28,199 nucleotides of DNA from an archaeon (GTDB lineage Archaea; Micrarchaeota; Micrarchaeia; Norongarragalinales; UBA97): positions 1-28,199 of the forward strand of contig JAGVFW010000015.1 of assembly GCA_020057405.1 (NCBI GenBank). Reading direction: 5' to 3'. Below, in pieces: positions 1,854 through 7,897 of the stretch; the stretch's first letter is position 1, and each line of letters starts with the position of its first letter. The position numbers were made by a program, and so were the translations under genes. The notes below the pieces were generated by a model. That model ran no database searches and had not been told where the DNA came from. It was given only the letters and a program-made list of their open reading frames with translations.

Positions 1854-2867
1854 ATGAAAATCCTTGCAATCGAGTCAACTGCACACACCATCGGCGTCGC
1901 CATAATAGAGTCCAAGGCGAAGTCCGCTACCGCAGTCTCAAAGGCCAATACTAAAGTTCTTTCAAACGAGATTGCGCGCTATCCGGCAAAGCTTGAGGGC
2001 TTCATCCCCCGAAAGCTCGCCGACCACCACGCGAAAGAATATCCCAGGGTGCTGCGTGCGGCGCTCTCGAAGGCGAAAGTGGCGCTTGCCGACATTGACT
2101 ACTTCTCCTACTCGCAGGGTCCCGGCATCGGGCACTGCCTCCGCGTTGGCTTCGTCGGCGCCCGCTCGCTCTCGCTCCTTAACGGCAAGCCGCTCATTCC
2201 AGTCAACCACACTGTCGCGCACGTCGAAGTCGGCAAGTGGGCCTGCGGCTGCGCCGACCCGCTCGTGGTTTACGTCAGCGGCGGGAACACGCAAATCCTG
2301 GCAAAACACGTCGAGCGTGGCGCGAACTACTACCACGTTTTTGGCGAGACGCTTGATGTCGGCATTGGCAACTTCCTTGACGTGATGGGCAGGGAACTGG
2401 CGCTTAGCCCGCCAAACGCAATTGGTTTCCTTGCGCTTGCGGAGAAAGGAAAAGAGTTTTTGCAACTGCCGTACACGGTGAAAGGCAACAACCTCGCCTT
2501 TTCGGGATTGCAGAGCGCTGCCTTGAGGCTCAAGGGCAAGCACCCGTCGGCAGACATTTGCTTTAGTGCGAGTGAAGTGGCCTTCTCCACCCTCGTCGAG
2601 GCAACTGAAAGAGTGCTTTGCCACACCGGCAACAAGGAAATGCTAATCGTCGGCGGGGTCGCGCAGGCAAAGCGCCTGCAGCAAATGTATTCACTCATGG
2701 CGGCCGACCACGGCGTGCGCTTTTCAGTAGTGCCACCCGTTTACGCTGGCGACCAGGCTGCAATGATTGGCATCACAGCAGTCAAGCACGCGCTTTCAAA
2801 GGACATCAGGCGCGATGTTTCTCCCAACCAGAGTATGCGCATCGATAGCCACGCCATCCGCTGGTAA
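1854..2867 (+). CDS. kae1: KEOPS t6A synthase Kae1 (TsaD family)
   Basis: Motifs ILAIESTAHT, SQGPGIG, VNHTVAHVE (HxxxH metal site), YVSGGNTQI, GETLDVGIGNFLD and VGGVA. Confidence 0.96.
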   Translation: MKILAIESTAHTIGVAIIESKAKSATAVSKANTKVLSNEIARYPAKLEGFIPRKLADHHAKEYPRVLRAALSKAKVALADIDYFSYSQGPGIGHCLRVGFVGARSLSLLNGKPLIPVNHTVAHVEVGKWACGCADPLVVYVSGGNTQILAKHVERGANYYHVFGETLDVGIGNFLDVMGRELALSPPNAIGFLALAEKGKEFLQLPYTVKGNNLAFSGLQSAALRLKGKHPSADICFSASEVAFSTLVEATERVLCHTGNKEMLIVGGVAQAKRLQQMYSLMAADHGVRFSVVPPVYAGDQAAMIGITAVKHALSKDIRRDVSPNQSMRIDSHAIRW

Positions 2868-2902
2868 TAAGGCGTATAAACCCGAATGGCTCTAAATAAA
2901 TC

Positions 2903-3556
2903 ATGAAAACCAAGATTTTACGAATCAGCCTGCGCGAGCGGGAAAAGGCCGCCAAGGCAGTCGAGCTTGCCGCAAAAGCCATTCTGGATGGCCAAATCAT
3001 AGCCTATCCAACTGAAACCACCTACGGCCTCGGCGCCGATGCGACAAACGAGGCGGCGGTGAAAAAGATTTTCGAACTCAAGGTCCGCGACGCCGACCGG
3101 GCCATGCCAATCATCGTAAGCGACCTGCGCATGGCAAAGGAATTCGCCGAAGTCGGCCCCGTTGCCGAGCACCTCGCAAACGCGTTCATGCCGGGACCCC
3201 TCACCCTAATCGTTGACAAGAAGAAAGGCATTCCCGACATCGTGAGCAGGCACGGCATCGCATTCCGCATCCCAAGCAACTACATCGCCCGCGGCATCGC
3301 AAGCCAGGCGAACAAGCCCCTCATTGCAACGAGCGCAAACATTTCCGGCCAGCCGCCTGTGGTAAAGGAAGCCGACCTCATCATCCAATTCGACACCAAA
3401 GTCAACCTCATCATCGCAACCGGCGACCTCATTTCAATGCCCCCAAGCACCGTAGTCGACGTGCGCACGCTCCCGCCAAAGCTCTTGCGACAGGGGCCAA
3501 TGCCATTTTCCGAAATCGAGGCGGAACTAAGAAAATTCGCGCCCGCGACGCCGTGA
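2903..3556 (+). CDS. tsaC: L-threonylcarbamoyladenylate synthase, single-domain TsaC/YrdC form of the Sua5 family
   Basis: Motifs AYPTETTYGLGADA, KxR (LKVR), FMPGPLTLI, FRIP and ATSANISG. At 217 aa it lacks a C-terminal SUA5 domain. Confidence 0.93.
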   Translation: MKTKILRISLREREKAAKAVELAAKAILDGQIIAYPTETTYGLGADATNEAAVKKIFELKVRDADRAMPIIVSDLRMAKEFAEVGPVAEHLANAFMPGPLTLIVDKKKGIPDIVSRHGIAFRIPSNYIARGIASQANKPLIATSANISGQPPVVKEADLIIQFDTKVNLIIATGDLISMPPSTVVDVRTLPPKLLRQGPMPFSEIEAELRKFAPATP

Positions 3557-4164
3557 GCACTATGCTTGCCCGCGGAGCCGAGGCCAAAGTCTTTCACACC
3601 ACTTACGACGGCGAGCCCGCACTCGCCAAAAGACGGCTGCCCAAAGCCTACCGGCTGGCTGCACTCGACAACACCATCCGCAAACAGCGCACGCGAAGGG
3701 AAGCCAAAATCCTTCGCGCCGCGAGGGCGGCTGGGGCAAAGTGCGCTGAACTACTAAAAGAAGACGAACAAAACTGCGAGCTCTTACTCAAGGAAGTGGA
3801 AGGAACGCTATTGAGCCGCGAGAAAACCATCGCACCAAAGCAGGCTTTCGAGGCGGGGCTGCAACTGGCGCTGTTGCACGACGCGGGCATCGTGCACGGT
3901 GACTACACCACGAGCAACCTGATTGCAGACGGCAACTTAGTTACAGTAATCGACTTCGGCTTGGGCGAGTTCTCAAACGCGGCCGAGGAAAAGGCGACCG
4001 ACGTGCTGCTCTTTGAGAAAAGCATTGCCGGCAGGGCAAACGAGCCGGCGCTTCGCTCGCACTTTGAGAAAGCCTACCTTTTGCACGCCCGCAACGGCCA
4101 TGCAACCCTAAAGAGGGTAAAGGCAATCTACGCAAGAATGCGCTACGCCAGCCAGAGCCAATGA
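3553..4164 (+). CDS. bud32: KEOPS kinase/ATPase Bud32
   Basis: Motifs ARGAEAKV, KRRLPKAYRLAALDNTIRKQRTRREAKIL, VHGDYTTSNLI and IDFGLG. GTGA overlap with tsaC. Confidence 0.95.
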   Translation: MSTMLARGAEAKVFHTTYDGEPALAKRRLPKAYRLAALDNTIRKQRTRREAKILRAARAAGAKCAELLKEDEQNCELLLKEVEGTLLSREKTIAPKQAFEAGLQLALLHDAGIVHGDYTTSNLIADGNLVTVIDFGLGEFSNAAEEKATDVLLFEKSIAGRANEPALRSHFEKAYLLHARNGHATLKRVKAIYARMRYASQSQ

Positions 4165-4216
4165 TGGCTAGCGCTAGTTGAAAGCGAAATACTCTGATGG
4201 ACCGAAGAACGGGAAC

Positions 4217-4368
4217 TTAAAGTTCGCCAGTTCTTCGCTTCATCTTGCGCTTCAAGCGCTTGCGTCGCTTCTTAATCCATTTCCAGCGCATGTGGCCTGA
4301 AAAGACAGCTTTCCATCAAACGATGAAAACGCGGTTTTCTTTTTCCACTTGCGCGGACGAGCACCCAT
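4217..4368 (-). CDS. rpl41e: Ribosomal protein eL41 (eS32), predicted join(4368..4337, 4298..4217), 37 aa
   Basis: GGAGG SD, then ATG at 4368 encoding MGARPRKWKKK. After a 38-nt insert and in another frame comes GHMRWKWIKKRRKRLKRKMKRRTGEL*. The joined sequence fits the long archaeal eL41 pattern RPRKWKKKGxMRWKWIKKR (recalled from Thermococcales). Confidence 0.9.
4299..4336 (-). other. Putative 38-nt bulge-helix-bulge/BHL-type intron in the eL41 mRNA
   Basis: Insert AACCGCGTTTTCATCGTTTGATGGAAAGCTGTCTTTTC. Central helix AAAG/CUUU with 3-nt bulges AA^A and UC^A. Inner stem AC/GU, GC/GC, UUUUCAUC/GAUGGAAA. Outer exon stem GUGG/CCAC and GCGCA/UGCGC after two A-G mismatches. Canonical cuts restore the frame. 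Confidence 0.8.
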
Positions 4369-5077
4369 TTGCTTTCCTCCGCTTAGTAAGTTCAATAACT
4401 ATCTTATCAACAACTTTTGTAGGGCTTTCCTTTATATCCTTCTCGCTAAAGCGCAGAACTAGCCAGCCATTCTCAGTTAAAACCCGGTTCACACGCACGT
4501 CTTTAACTATTGCCTTTGGAATTGAATGCCAATAATCGCCGTCACAAAACACGGCGATTTTCTCATCCGGAAACGCCTTGTCCGACTGGCAAACGCCAAG
4601 AATGGGCAAATGCTTGTAGTGCCCTATCTCTCGCCTTGAAAGTTCCCCTTCGACAAGCCGCTCAATGCTCGTGTCTTTAGTGGGTCGGGGTACGGCAAGT
4701 ATCTTGAGCCTATGCTCTTCGGATTTCTTCTTTCCGCGCATGGCTTCGGACTTGCTCATTGTCCTTATTCCAAACTCCCTGAAAAGACGGCGCAAAGTTT
4801 GGTGGTGAATGGAGAGTTTAATTGCGAGATTCTTTATCGAAATTCTCTTTTCCAAGTATTCTTCTCGCAGATAATCAGCCGTAATGTGTCCAAGCTTATG
4901 CTTTCGCCGTACTCGCCAAGATTCAAACAAATCACGAGGCCGAATGTCATAGCGCTTCAGAATCTTTGCGATGGTCTTGTAAGAGCAACCAAAATGCTTG
5001 CAAAGCTCGCGAGTGGAGAGTTCGTTCTGAACATACAATTCCTCGAGCTCTTCTCTAGGAATTACAACGTTCTTCAT
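4316..5077 (-). CDS. HTH-repeat + NUMOD3-like + Vsr/DUF559-type endonuclease; free-standing homing-endonuclease-like protein
   Basis: Two HTH-like modules (ELEELYVQNELSTRELCKHFGCSYKTIAKILKRYDI; YLREEYLEKRISIKNLAIKLSIHHQTLRRLFREFGI), a NUMOD3-like MRGKKKSEEHRLKI, and a Vsr-like core TSIE..SD..IAVFCDGDYWH..KD..L.ENGWLVLRFSE. Visibly more AT-rich than its flanks. ATG 5077 preferred over TTG 5116. Confidence 0.85.
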   Translation of the reverse strand: MKNVVIPREELEELYVQNELSTRELCKHFGCSYKTIAKILKRYDIRPRDLFESWRVRRKHKLGHITADYLREEYLEKRISIKNLAIKLSIHHQTLRRLFREFGIRTMSKSEAMRGKKKSEEHRLKILAVPRPTKDTSIERLVEGELSRREIGHYKHLPILGVCQSDKAFPDEKIAVFCDGDYWHSIPKAIVKDVRVNRVLTENGWLVLRFSEKDIKESPTKVVDKIVIELTKRRKANGCSSAQVEKENRVFIV

Positions 5078-5107
5078 TAGAAAACTAGCACTTGGGCAAA
5101 GCAATTG

Positions 5108-5133
5108 GTTTGCCAACGGTGGCTTGCCGGGCT
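5108..5133. repeat. Interspersed repeat, variant B copy 1 (GTTTGCCAACGGTGGCTTGCCGGGCT)
   Basis: Near-identical to 15051-15074 and shares GTGGCTTGCCGGG with 7257-7281 and 7906-7930. Abuts the hel308 stop codon. Confidence 0.7.
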
Positions 5134-7228
5134 AGCCGCCTTCGCCCGCTATCACGCGCTCGGCAACTTTCGCGCCAATCACTTTAGCCAATTTCTCCTT
5201 GCCTGCGGCCCGAAGCTCCTCGCGGTTCGTGATGCCCGCAATAAACAATCGCCTTGCCCTCACTCGGCCAATGCCTCGCACGCGGACGAGGTCGAGGAGC
5301 TCTTCCTTTACCCCGTGCTTGAGGCGGCGCTGCATGTTGCGCGCCTCGAGGCGCACGCTTGAGGCGTTCTTGATGTAGGCAAGTTCCGCAAGCGAGTAAG
5401 TCAGCCACTCGAGGAGCCTCACGCGCGAGTGAAGAATGCCAGGCGGCAAGTCGAATTGCGTGAAAATCGCGTCCTCGCCAGCCTCGTTAATCCAGGCGTT
5501 GGCAATCTTCGCCTGCTTGTACTTGCCCAATGCATCTTCATCAAACTCCCATCGGGAAACGGCATTATCGTCGATTTGCGCGTAAAGCTCTTCCCACAGC
5601 GCCTGCTCCTCGGCGCGGCCGACGCGCGGCAGGGGACGCAGTTCAAGGGCGCCTGCGACTTCAAGCAAGAGTGGAAACGGCCCTGCGACGGGCTTGTCAA
5701 TGTAGTCGATGAAAGCCTTTGCAGTAAGCGGGTCGATGTAAAGCTCGCTCACGCGCTTGCCAACCGGCGTTGCAATGAGCTTGCCGCCCTTCTCGCGCAT
5801 AAAATCGTACTTCATCAGCTCCATGCCCACGCGCTCGACGCGCGAGTTAAGCTGCGCGGAATCGCCGAACTGCTTGGCGAAGAAAGTGTGGCCGAAGAAA
5901 GTGAAGAGCTCCTCGAAGGAATTACAGTGGTTTGTTGCAACGAGTGCCAGGGCGTGCGTGCGAAGCGCCGGCTCGGCGCTGAGTTTTGAGAAAATGTTCT
6001 CAAGCGGGCCAAGGATGTACTTGTCCCTGACTTTACGCAAGTCGCTGGGCCCGCAGCAAATCACGCCGACTCCCTGCTTGTCGTACCTCGGCCTGCCCGC
6101 CCTGCCGAGCATCTGCGCGACTTCGAGGGCGGGAACGAAATCCGAGAAATTGCCGTCGAATCTCTTGACATCGCGAACAATGACCCAACTTGCGGGATAG
6201 TCAATGCCCATGGCAAGCGTAGTCGTTGCCACGATGCACTTGATGCAGCGCGTTTCCTTAAAGCCCCGCTCAATTATCTCGCGCTGGCGGCCTTCGATGC
6301 CGGCGTGGTGGAATGCGACGCCGGACCGCAGGCACTGCGAGAGAAGTTCGCACTGGCCAGTGGGATTCGGCAGCGCCTTGAGTGCTTTTTGCGCAAGCAA
6401 TTCGCACTGCGCCTTGTCTTCGGGTGAGAGGGCGGGACCCGTTGCGGTGATGAGCTCTCGCGCGAGCGCCTCGGCGCTGCGCCGGGTCGAGACGAAAACC
6501 AGCGATTGGCCTTTCCCCGCATTCACTGCCATTGCGCGGCGGACCAAATCGTGAACTGGCTTTTTCTCATCCATTTCAACGGCGCCGTCTTCGGAATAGA
6601 GCTTGCCCGCGCTTGCGACCATCTTGACGAGTTGGGTCGGCCGCCACTCGCTTTCAAAGAGTTTCGCGCCCATCCAGCCGGCCAACTCGCCGGCGTTTGG
6701 GATTGTGGCAGAAAGAGAGAGCACTTGCGCGCCGTTTTGCAGGAATTTCGTGAGCACGACTTCAAGGGTCGCACCCCGGCCGGCGTCATTGAGCAAGTGC
6801 GTCTCGTCGGCGACTACGAGGGACACTTGCTTTAGCCACGGCGCCTTGTGGCGCGTGAGCGAATCCATCTTCTCGCTTGTTGCAATGATGAGGTCGAATG
6901 CGGCGAGGCGGTCGCCCTCGTCGTCAAGGTCGCCCGTGCTAACGCCGACTGAGATGCCGAACTGCGAGAGGATTTGCGAAAACTCTCGGTGCTTTTCGCT
7001 TGCGAGGGCGCGAAGGGGCACGATGTAGACGGCCTTGCCGTTCTTGCGCTTGAAGTTGTCAAGCACGCGCAAGATGGCGAGGAGCGTCTTTCCGCTCGCG
7101 GTGGGTGCGCTGACGACGAAGTTGCCGGGCTCAAGCAAGCCCGCCTTCACCGCGCCCTCCTGCATTGGGTTGAGCTTGACATAGCCTAGACGCGAGAGAG
7201 TGTCCTGCAATTCGGTGATTTGCTCCAC
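5132..7228 (-). CDS. hel308: Ski2-like SF2 DNA helicase Hel308/Hjm
   Basis: APTASGKT (Walker A), IVPLRALASEK, VADETH (DExH), LSAT, VAFHHAG, ATTTLAMGID, QMLGRAGRP and a C-terminal HhH (VRGIGRVRARRL). Confidence 0.95.
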   Translation of the reverse strand: MEQITELQDTLSRLGYVKLNPMQEGAVKAGLLEPGNFVVSAPTASGKTLLAILRVLDNFKRKNGKAVYIVPLRALASEKHREFSQILSQFGISVGVSTGDLDDEGDRLAAFDLIIATSEKMDSLTRHKAPWLKQVSLVVADETHLLNDAGRGATLEVVLTKFLQNGAQVLSLSATIPNAGELAGWMGAKLFESEWRPTQLVKMVASAGKLYSEDGAVEMDEKKPVHDLVRRAMAVNAGKGQSLVFVSTRRSAEALARELITATGPALSPEDKAQCELLAQKALKALPNPTGQCELLSQCLRSGVAFHHAGIEGRQREIIERGFKETRCIKCIVATTTLAMGIDYPASWVIVRDVKRFDGNFSDFVPALEVAQMLGRAGRPRYDKQGVGVICCGPSDLRKVRDKYILGPLENIFSKLSAEPALRTHALALVATNHCNSFEELFTFFGHTFFAKQFGDSAQLNSRVERVGMELMKYDFMREKGGKLIATPVGKRVSELYIDPLTAKAFIDYIDKPVAGPFPLLLEVAGALELRPLPRVGRAEEQALWEELYAQIDDNAVSRWEFDEDALGKYKQAKIANAWINEAGEDAIFTQFDLPPGILHSRVRLLEWLTYSLAELAYIKNASSVRLEARNMQRRLKHGVKEELLDLVRVRGIGRVRARRLFIAGITNREELRAAGKEKLAKVIGAKVAERVIAGEGG

Positions 7229-7290: not shown

Positions 7291-7671
7291 TCAGTAAGTG
7301 ATTACTTCGAGGCCCTTGACTCGCTTGAAGTGCTTGGAATTTCGAGTTAGCACTGGCTCGCCAAGAGTCGAGGCGGTGGCGGCAATCATTGCGTCTGCAG
7401 CGTCAATCTCTTGGCCTGACGCCCTAAGTTGGGCGAATATTGTCCCACCGAGTTCTGCGCTCTCGTCGTTTAGTGGAACCGAAGAGAAAGCCCGGAGGAA
7501 TTCCTTTCGCTTTTCTCCAAGGCCTGCGGGCCAGCCAGATGCAAGCTCAAAGACGCTCACGGAACTAATGAGGAGTTCCTGGCCTCCGCGCTGGAGCTTG
7601 CTTGCGGCTGCAACTGCCGATTGATTGCCGTTGGCCAAGTCAATGAGCACGCTCGTGTCAACTACGGCCAT
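7291..7671 (-). CDS. vapC: VapC PIN-domain toxin (ribonuclease)
   Basis: PIN acidic motifs VVDTSVLID, SSVSVFEL, DAMIAATA and LTRNSKHF; 126 aa. Confidence 0.93.
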   Translation of the reverse strand: MAVVDTSVLIDLANGNQSAVAAASKLQRGGQELLISSVSVFELASGWPAGLGEKRKEFLRAFSSVPLNDESAELGGTIFAQLRASGQEIDAADAMIAATASTLGEPVLTRNSKHFKRVKGLEVITY

Positions 7672-7877
7672 TTCCTCACCTTGAACGCTTTACGCACCAT
7701 CTTTACGCCGGCTTCGAGTTCCTTCGCCTCTTCGTCTGAAAGAATGCCCGCCACATCGGTTATCGAGGGCTTGCTCAACAAGCGCAGCACTTCCTGAGTG
7801 AAGCTCTCGCTCCCGCGCTTGTGCCGCCGGAGGGTTTCGTAAGCCTCGGTTGAGAGGCTGATGTTCTTGTAGGCCAT
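7662..7877 (-). CDS. vapB: VapB antitoxin (archaeal COG1753/DUF217-like)
   Basis: MAYKNISLSTEAYETLRRHKRGSESFTQEVLRLL...AGILSDEEAKEL. Overlaps the vapC start. Alternative start at 7889. Confidence 0.88.
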   Translation of the reverse strand: MAYKNISLSTEAYETLRRHKRGSESFTQEVLRLLSKPSITDVAGILSDEEAKELEAGVKMVRKAFKVRKWP

Positions 7878-7897
7878 ACACAGATACATACACAGAT
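7875..7897 (-). promoter_or_regulatory. Tandem 11-bp direct repeat (ATCTGTGTATG x2) at the vapB start; possible autoregulatory operator
   Basis: Exact copies at 7887-7897 and 7875-7885, between a BRE/TATA-like GAAAGCTTTAAG and the start codon. Confidence 0.5.

Follow-up and report, generated by a model that had tools for sequence, protein, structure and literature searches.

The window considered here is the whole stretch of DNA that was analysed, 28,199 nucleotides (nt) of contig JAGVFW010000015.1 from a micrarchaeotal genome. Between a Hel308-type helicase gene (hel308) and the gene for ribosomal protein eL41 it contains a free-standing gene for a predicted nuclease, and eL41 is itself interrupted by a short insert (Table 1). 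The full open reading frame (ORF) of the nuclease extends over positions 4316-5116 on the minus strand, and the ATG at 5077 was taken as the start by alignment with homologues, which gives a protein of 253 amino acids (aa) designated P0001. The 3' end of the nuclease gene overlaps exon 1 of eL41, which begins with the ATG at 4368-4366 and is read in another frame, and its TGA stop falls inside the 38-nt insert. A preliminary description of this DNA, made from the letters alone, had noted a lower-GC gene lying between hel308 and eL41 and overlapping eL41 exon 1. The arrangement was confirmed by the coordinates and by the Pfam hits of the helicase, and the base composition by a GC content of 0.43-0.49 across positions 4200-5100 as against 0.55-0.63 in both flanks. 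Calculated by gene, the GC content of the nuclease ORF is 0.461, compared with 0.583 in the remainder of the locus (L001).

Table 1. Features of the hel308-eL41 interval and the basis on which each was assigned (positions are those of the window)
Feature	Position	Strand	Basis
Hel308-type helicase gene, upstream border of the insertion	5132..7228	-	Pfam: DEAD, Helicase_C, archaeal helicase domain 4, HHH_5
Nuclease gene, free-standing, predicted EDxHD type (I-Bth0305I-like), 253 aa and TGA	4316..5077	-	ORF, translation, homologue alignment, 3r3p match by sequence and fold
Helix-turn-helix (HTH) module 1, residues 8-42	4952..5056	-	Pfam HTH_23 and HTH_28; model helices 8-17, 22-29, 33-42
HTH module 2, residues 67-102	4772..4879	-	Model helices 67-76, 81-87, 92-102; HTH_Tnp_1 weak, E 0.0017
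Basic linker, residues 114-126, called NUMOD3-like in the preliminary description	4700..4738	-	Poorly ordered in model; missing from short-form relatives
Predicted Vsr-fold nuclease domain, residues 133-236, with E139, D166, D179, H184, D193	4370..4681	-	Invariant columns; alignment to I-Bth0305I and Vsr; fold search
GGAGG Shine-Dalgarno-like motif, inside nuclease ORF, 7 nt before eL41 start	4376..4380	-	Sequence reading
eL41 exon 1, 32 nt, MGARPRKWKK and two bases of codon 11	4337..4368	-	Sequence; bulge-helix-bulge (BHB) geometry; 37-aa product
Predicted BHB mini-intron, 38 nt, holding the nuclease TGA stop (4316-4318)	4299..4336	-	BHB geometry, covariation
eL41 exon 2, last base of codon 11, then GHMRWKWIKKRRKRLKRKMKRRTGEL and stop	4217..4298	-	Sequence; matches residues 8-37 of uninterrupted eL41

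Domain composition of the nuclease

The two HTH modules of the preliminary description were both recovered. HTH_23 was placed by Pfam at residues 18-43 (32 bits, cut-off 24.6) and HTH_28 scored 28.2 bits, the two matches spanning residues 14-44, and the second module appears as three helices in an AlphaFold model that was built on 21 homologues and has a mean predicted local distance difference test score (pLDDT) of 86. The likeness of the following linker to NUMOD3 was not upheld and exists by eye only. PF07460 (NUMOD3) was absent among the 25 listed of 31 Pfam families matching P0001 at E<=1 and among the 25 listed of 50 families matching 21 family members; it is carried only by the more distant relatives P0025-P0027, and the match of P0001 to NUMOD1 is weak (E 0.051). 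In the short-form relatives P0009, P0015, P0018 and P0020 the linker is replaced by gaps at alignment columns 150-210, and the nuclease of genome G285 is without hidden Markov model positions 110-148.

An alpha/beta domain begins at about residue 133 of the model. The E..D..DGxYWH..D nuclease motif, which had been described as apparently intact, held up on alignment, with E139, D166, D179, G180, Y182, W183, H184 and D193 invariant across 21 sequences. All 21 aligned members match DUF559 (PF04480; 25.9 bits, above the cut-off of 20.6), and a match to MTES_1575 lies under its cut-off (34.8 bits against 38.2). When a profile of the 21 homologues was compared with solved structures, the best relative was 3r3p, the catalytic domain of I-Bth0305I (E 4.4e-8), followed by 3hrl and by Escherichia coli Vsr (1cw0). 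The Foldseek search likewise returned chains B and A of 3r3p as its top two matches (E 5e-4, TM score of 0.74-0.75 on the target), and then Vsr (1cw0 and 1vsr) and 3hrl. Identity to the 3r3p domain is 24-25%. In the profile alignment D166 and H184 face alanines of the 3r3p chain, and the crystallised I-Bth0305I construct bore the substitutions D196A and H213A (PMC3239194); the invariant D179 stands two residues off the acidic position noted for I-Bth0305I. Weak homologues from Vibrio phages, covering 96% of P0001, carry a homing endonuclease annotation.

The Vsr structures among the fold matches, together with weak matches to the Vsr families PF03852 (E 5.8e-4) and NCBIfam TIGR00632 (E 1.6e-7), are in keeping with a true Vsr endonuclease that nicks T:G mismatches. 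The family scores are, however, far below their cut-offs (20.1 versus 27 bits for PF03852 and 31.6 versus 97.85 bits for TIGR00632), and I-Bth0305I matches better both by sequence and by fold. The approximately 130 N-terminal residues consist of HTH modules, which to our knowledge are not found in Vsr itself, and the gene is bound to one locus and patchy in occurrence. The probability that this is a true Vsr enzyme is considered negligible. Of the architecture given in the preliminary description, namely NUMOD/HTH modules joined to a Vsr-like (EDxHD) nuclease, the HTH modules, the Vsr fold and 3r3p as the best match all stand, and the NUMOD component is unsupported by Pfam. Sequence and model together support a nuclease of the EDxHD family, I-Bth0305I-like, with its catalytic residues intact. 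The order of HTH-type modules at the N-terminus and a Vsr-fold nuclease with conserved E, D, H and D at the C-terminus is that of the EDxHD family as described in PMC3239194. Constraint on the protein was estimated from nonsynonymous (pN) and synonymous (pS) differences, which are reported instead of dN/dS because synonymous sites were saturated. The pN of 0.27-0.38 is far under the saturated pS of 0.79-0.94, so the nuclease protein is under constraint.

The insert in eL41

Inserts of 31-41 nt were found in eL41 at 17 interrupted loci of the order to which the window genome belongs; their sequences differ and a central hairpin is present in each. Two metagenome contigs are also interrupted, L101 by 42 nt and L109 by 38 nt. 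The inserts were evaluated using a BHB rule, in which a 4-bp helix lies between 3-nt bulges and the cut falls after the second bulge base, and the splice giving the 37-aa eL41 was ranked at each locus against all 1575 position pairs. The rule fits the eL41-restoring splice in 17/17 loci tested. The H helix is 4/4 in 14 loci, 3/4 in two and 2/4 in one, the h' helix reaches at least 3/4 in 16, and at 10 of the 17 loci none of the 1575 alternative pairs outscores the restoring splice. The window intron has an H helix of 4/4, 3-nt bulges and an in-frame product; its outer helix h is broken by a 2x2 mismatch, so the motif is relaxed and not strictly canonical. A first BHB scan had been dropped as too permissive on A/U-rich sequence, where it gave up to 39 candidates per locus.

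Covariation was assessed in 10 introns of the window type, in which the outer exon-exon helix, the central helix and the inner hairpin were scored. Pairing was found in 91% of cells, as against 39-54% when the partners were slid by 1-3 columns; 14 of 27 pairs changed on both sides, and the covariation score was reached by 0 of 500 shuffles. The central 4-bp helix, formed by exon 1 codons with the intron 3' end, covaries (GC:6, AU:4), and by hand reading the pair formed by intron positions 2 and 30 is C-G in the window and U-A in L109. A comparison of exon-exon complementarity between 23 intron-bearing and 49 intron-less rows gave p 0.033, and no conclusion was drawn from it because it was confounded: the register fits the 32-nt type only, L177 and L178 are the same locus, the L070 segment includes a second intron, and the rows are related by kinship.

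The coding part of exon 1 reads MG[ASY]RPRKW across 22 interrupted alleles despite many synonymous changes. A Shine-Dalgarno-like motif is kept before exon 1 (AGGAGG or AGGTG-type motifs at other interrupted loci), and none precedes Met14. A splicing endonuclease is encoded in the genome in one 407-aa frame (G000:C6:129521-130000, locus L170) that is matched twice by PF01974 (72.8 bits, and 40.2 bits with its neighbours), and RtcB is encoded as well (576.8 bits). Contigs from Logan for four DNA runs, which hold only small shares, were used solely to mark the 3' border of the intron; they include relatives with and without the insert, and in those without it the loose ends at 4298 run into exon 1. 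A listing of public RNA runs for window positions 3900-5400 gave no match. The proposal that the 38-nt insert is an EndA-type intron was supported by BHB geometry, by covariation and by the presence of the splicing endonuclease and RtcB genes. These sequence features support an insert that behaves as a BHB intron and is predicted to be spliced. As a side observation, the two-match splicing endonuclease may correspond to the multi-unit epsilon2 type of ARMAN archaea; epsilon2 endonucleases of the ARMAN type reportedly accept broad substrates (PMC5829648, PMC12397907).

It could alternatively be supposed that the insert is not spliced, and that ribosomes bypass it, as in T4 gene 60 with its 50-nt gap, or that translation of eL41 begins at Met14, which would make exon 1 a relic. 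The resulting protein of 24 aa would be similar in length to eukaryotic eL41. In form, the MobA-bypass cassette comes close to this arrangement, and in some metagenomic bypass cassettes a VSR-type endonuclease stands in the place of MobA (bioRxiv 10.1101/2022.08.31.505936). Both variants are, however, at odds with the BHB geometry and predicted in-frame junctions at 17/17 loci, with the covariation of the helix that exon 1 forms with the 3' end of the insert, and with the conservation of the exon 1 protein sequence and of a Shine-Dalgarno-like motif that Met14 lacks. The codons at the end of exon 1 in the window (AAG, AAA) also differ from the triplet before exon 2 (TCA), which leaves no take-off and landing pair, and the genome encodes a splicing endonuclease and RtcB. 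Translation of an unspliced message is thus considered very improbable; under it the logic of a mobile cassette, given below, would still hold.

Distribution, allelic states and descent

The survey of the order covered 68 genomes, 65 of them with eL41. An interrupted allele was found in 18 of the 65, 45 have only uninterrupted alleles, and two are cut by contig ends (G406 and G242). The order contains 11 nuclease genes (11/68 genomes), all directly upstream of eL41, and the mini-intron is present in 10 of these 11 loci. A nuclease or a remnant of one accompanies 13 of the 18 interrupted genomes and 1 of the 45 uninterrupted ones (G285). Upstream of interrupted eL41 the nuclease is intact in G000, G153, G275, G141, G018, G131, G403 and G410, cut by a contig end in G136 and broken by a TAA in G145, and only its last 25-40 codons are left in G196, G407 and G385 (the last a weak match, E 0.006). 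The survey had been suggested in the preliminary description, and the co-occurrence that it predicted was obtained; an independent distribution of nuclease and intron was not seen in the order. The nuclease has settled directly upstream of eL41 in a subset of Micrarchaeota, with strong homologues in about 10 of 401 sampled genomes of the phylum.

For the rest of the phylum, 150 matches of an eL41 search were listed and 237 more were unlisted; interruptions were flagged by weak E-value, so that others may be missed. Of five flagged genomes that were checked outside the order, two have an interrupted eL41 and two an intact one, and in the fifth the gene is cut by a contig end. The unpublished genomes G197 and G029 were counted in the phylum-wide search solely as full-length eL41 matches.

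Filled and empty states occur side by side within genera g1, g8, g13, g17 and g23. In the same genus as the window genome, G417 has the hel308 stop followed by 46 nt and an intact eL41, shares the synteny, including bud32 and sua5, and carries neither nuclease nor intron. Over 3 kb the metagenome contig L109 matches the window at 80-83% DNA identity, and it has kept its intron, with the last 56 nuclease codons left and the first ~200 replaced by 228 unrelated bases; L101 has an intron and a nuclease split in two frames. Counting stop-broken genes and short remnants, the nuclease has decayed in at least six loci (G145, G196, G407, G385, L101 and L109). Loss of the nuclease with retention of the intron is common and a nuclease without an intron is rare, an asymmetry that protection by the intron would predict.

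Both alleles are present in one metagenome-assembled genome (MAG), G153, where the cassette lies on a 2.7-kb contig and the end of a longer contig is without it. The flanks of the two alleles are identical at 127/130 and 141/141 bases. Mismatches are found beside the cassette, with four in 28 nt of exon 1 and five in the first 31 nt of exon 2, and the next 99 nt have none. This clustering is the pattern of a co-conversion tract, and is an indirect hint that intron-less alleles may be cut close to the insertion site and repaired by joint copying of nuclease and intron. In the cassette allele (L003, contig C44) the nuclease frame is the same as that of eL41 exon 1, so a spliced transcript could encode a nuclease-eL41 fusion.

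The nuclease might instead be a vertically inherited host gene, for example an HTH regulator of the eL41 operon or a repair nuclease, with patchiness due to repeated loss and the link to the intron due to ancestry. Purifying selection on the protein is in keeping with this, and both intron position and nuclease subtype largely follow taxonomic family. The approximately unbiased (AU) tests do not clearly reject vertical descent: when the same-genus nuclease pair was held together in a 10-row tree it was not rejected (p-AU 0.30), and holding the three nucleases of family f3 together gave p-AU 0.032 for a group that was named after seeing the tree. The rows of this tree did not include the partial G136 sequence or proteins known from databases only; in a 25-row tree, to be read without its G410 row, the G136 row is 37% filled. 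A host gene of this kind is, however, difficult to reconcile with presence in only 11 of 68 genomes of the order and with a same-genus genome that has the synteny and no nuclease, or with decay in at least six loci and polymorphism within one MAG. The GC content of the nuclease is below that of its flanks in 10/10 loci, and within the genus the nucleases are 47-59% identical as against 75-86% for large flanking genes, so that the gene changes far more quickly than the large genes around it. Among characterised proteins, the nearest relatives are homing endonucleases. Vertical inheritance as a host gene is accordingly regarded as improbable.

A transposon was also considered and rejected. No convincing terminal repeats were found, the best flanking inverted pair having 11-nt arms and being one of 15 short pairs, and there is no transposase catalytic domain; the IS481 and IS630 matches span the HTH part only.

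On these data, the nuclease gene, eL41 exon 1 and the ORF-less BHB intron of 31-42 nt probably form one mobile cassette. From the compared sequences we infer its cut site, protection by the intron, spread by gene conversion and splicing in vivo, as follows. The nuclease would cut cassette-free eL41 alleles near codons 9-15, and repair from a cassette-bearing allele would bring in nuclease gene, exon 1 and intron as one piece. The intron would split the recognition site, so that the carrier is spared, and the host splicing endonuclease and RtcB would remove the intron from the mRNA, so that eL41 is still made. After fixation the nuclease would decay and the intron would remain.

Several observations weigh against the mobile cassette, or at least against a simple form of it. 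In G285 a short-form nuclease without the linker precedes an uninterrupted eL41, and the same is found in L090, which is nearly the same locus, and, judged by its tail, for P0018, so the intron is not always needed; short-form nucleases could, as a guess, be inactive or differently targeted. Conversely, G277, G148, G147, G324 and G225 have an interrupted eL41 with no trace of a nuclease, and in G081 and G053, which belong to another order (family f11), eL41 carries a 30-nt insert and a nuclease was not found nearby, so introns persist, and perhaps arise, without it. With exceptions in both directions, the nuclease does not strictly need the intron, nor does the intron strictly depend on the nuclease. 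The position of the intron goes largely with family, exon 1 being 26 nt long in f2 and mostly 32 nt elsewhere, and related genomes do not count as independent, so part of the association is shared descent; the tree tests, which are inconclusive, do not show horizontal transfer. In G153, finally, the cassette allele L003 differs from the other allele (L044, contig C3) by extra genes for a RadC-like JAB protein and an HxlR-like HTH protein between hel308 and the nuclease, and the alleles differ by a 78-nt indel about 100 nt downstream of eL41, which points to an exchange larger than a simple homing tract. Regarding the inserts outside the order, those of G081 (L176:1564-1629) and G053 (L177:1564-1629) bear a hairpin and an in-frame TGA and lie near eL41 codon 9-10, at about nucleotide position 26-28; an ordinary promoter-like region lies upstream of eL41 in both, and a nuclease homologue was not found in either locus.

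The positions of the introns bear on whether the interruption itself is selected. By the BHB rule exon 1 measures 26 nt in f2, 27 in g17, 28 in G136, 29 in G196, and 32 in the window and seven others. In G225, which belongs to the same family as the window genome, eL41 (L070:3445-3559) has two inserts, one of 37 nt at the usual codon 11 site and another, measuring about 42 nt and also forming a hairpin, in codon 15 and 12 nt after the first; a search of the 3.4 kb upstream gave no nuclease homologue. Four or five sites of interruption thus lie within about 7 nt, and with the second intron within about 20 nt of the 114-nt eL41 gene. Several interruptions in about 20 nt are odd in themselves and fit selection for breaking that stretch. 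The intron might, on the other hand, be a hitch-hiker that is merely co-converted, the homing site of the nuclease being the hel308-eL41 junction, in the manner of T4 MobE and its trans homing, with immunity supplied by other changes in the target. The nuclease loci with an uninterrupted eL41 (G285, L090 and P0018) fit this, as do the nine positions at which the filled and empty G153 alleles differ in exon 1 and at the start of exon 2, which could give immunity. It accounts less readily for the intron in 10 of 11 nuclease loci, and the clustering of the exon 1 ends and of the second G225 intron in a very short stretch is easier to explain if interruption is selected. Passive co-conversion is therefore judged unlikely, although it is the strongest of the alternatives. 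The wider statement that ORF-less BHB introns in archaeal protein genes spread in DNA by means of a trans-acting, free-standing homing endonuclease, and that the mini-introns of eL41 originated, or became fixed, as insertions that give immunity by splitting its target, is considered about as probable as its negation. Repeated rounds of such conflict would explain both the crowding of intron positions and the second intron within about 20 nt.

Relatives of the nuclease were also sought elsewhere. The wider superfamily comprises 32,168 representatives at E<=0.001, and just four 50%-identity representatives are full-length matches with E below 1e-90; among 5.8 billion proteins there were 28 matches, of which all named ones are from Micrarchaeota MAGs. 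By reading of the alignment, the tail derived from eL41 exon 1 in the nuclease frame ends 15 of 20 database homologues, three others being partial and two different. Downstream eL41 was absent at 77 of 80 metagenome loci, and the nine of the 80 that were examined are more distant relatives at other sites, either upstream of gatB or phage-like (gene names by eye). One distant relative lies between two genes that by eye resemble sulfate-activation genes. Such a scatter of distant relatives over sites is expected of a family of free-standing homing endonucleases.

Other observations on these relatives were recorded. On the low-GC metagenome contigs L096 (2033-4745), L103 (2021-4769) and L092 (2558-4699), full-length distant homologues of about 400 aa and 31-33% identity stand directly upstream of gatB, with gene names assigned by reading; in L092 just the C-terminal two thirds of gatB follow, so gatB may be split. 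Some relatives in the representative search have several repeats of the HTH-region match. In L091, L094, L102 and L106 (GC ~0.55), nuclease-domain relatives are situated in phage-like regions by ORFs that by eye are tape-measure-like or capsid-like, and L091 also has a LAGLIDADG-like ORF at 3821-4474 (by eye). Genome G103 contains four distant nuclease copies (C1:352615-352992, 378604-378981, 404593-404970 and 1137310-1137654). Each of the three spaced copies has one in-frame TGA and the fourth has two; the three follow one another at intervals of exactly 25,989 nt, a spacing that points to either a tandem repeat of 26 kb or an artefact of assembly.

In the window itself, three genes in a row on the plus strand (1854-4164) converge on eL41, and the Bud32-like ORF among them matches the APH kinase family. 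We take these genes to be Kae1, Sua5 and Bud32, of N6-threonylcarbamoyladenosine (t6A) synthesis. A small pair of genes at 7291-7889 on the minus strand presumably encodes a PIN-domain toxin and its antitoxin.

Comparison with known systems and implications

The nuclease differs in setting from its characterised relatives. I-Bth0305I is encoded inside a group I intron of phage recA (Taylor et al. 2011, PMC3239194), and the set described by Dassa et al. in 2009 lies between split-intein halves (PMC2677866). The window gene is free-standing on a cellular archaeal chromosome, beside an intron of the enzyme-spliced type, and NUMOD was not detected in it by Pfam.

In its arrangement the locus resembles collaborative homing, as described for F-CphI with the cyanophage psbA intron (Zeng et al. 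2009 and Bonocora & Shub 2009, cited in PMC2790892), and trans homing by T4 MobE (PMC2790892). In each case a free-standing endonuclease gene adjoins a gene with an ORF-less intron, the two are co-inherited, and the intron persists without a nuclease of its own; at the eL41 locus such a gene pair was found and was co-distributed (10/11 loci; 13/18 versus 1/45 genomes). The phage introns are self-splicing group I introns, for which cleavage and co-inheritance were shown experimentally (PMC2790892); the present system is a prediction from sequence. It also differs in having a BHB intron of 31-42 nt that would need a host endonuclease and ligase, a cellular archaeon as host, and a ribosomal protein gene as target.

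The MobA-gene 60 cassette is likewise composed of a nuclease gene, an element-borne start of the target gene and a short (~50 nt) non-coding insert. There self-cutting is prevented by the insert that the adjacent gene carries, and in many cases the nuclease has become a pseudogene or disappeared and the insert is still present (bioRxiv 10.1101/2022.08.31.505936). According to the same source the MobA insert disrupts the nuclease site and is neutralised in expression, and by analogy the eL41 insert may do the same; in both systems the insertion point shifts by a few bases. The two differ in that the ribosome skips the MobA insert, whereas a BHB structure is present here, and in that MobA is an HNH nuclease of phages and the present gene lies on an archaeal chromosome.

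Those BHB introns of rRNA genes that encode homing endonucleases have the LAGLIDADG gene inside the intron. The nuclease here is of another family and outside the intron, and the host is a DPANN archaeon. In being of the enzyme-spliced type and polymorphic through gain and loss among relatives, the eL41 introns are like those in cbf5 of Crenarchaeota (PMC2738675) and in rRNA genes (PMC4496867). They are unlike the cbf5 introns in that a nuclease stands upstream of exon 1, a partner that the title and the start of the abstract of PMC2738675 do not mention. In a literature search, judged by titles and abstract starts, no report was found of an eL41 intron or of a BHB intron with a homing endonuclease as its partner. 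To a logic already known from phages, the present case adds a new type of intron, a new host and a new target gene.

For annotation, the consequences are that eL41 is miscalled or missed at such loci and that nuclease ORFs are given false C-terminal tails from eL41 exon 1. The filled, decayed and empty alleles form a natural series that is suited to bench work. For the biology of archaeal introns, the locus offers a concrete and testable answer to how BHB introns, lacking both ribozyme and ORF, get into genes and pass from one to another: the proposed division of labour leaves the DNA work to a neighbouring homing endonuclease and the RNA work to the tRNA-splicing machinery of the host. If this is true, a ribosomal protein gene would join the few archaeal protein genes known to have introns, EDxHD homing endonucleases would extend to cellular archaea (DPANN), and the locus would be an archaeal chromosomal counterpart of the MobA-bypass and collaborative-homing cassettes of phages. 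It would also provide the first mobility mechanism for protein-free archaeal introns.

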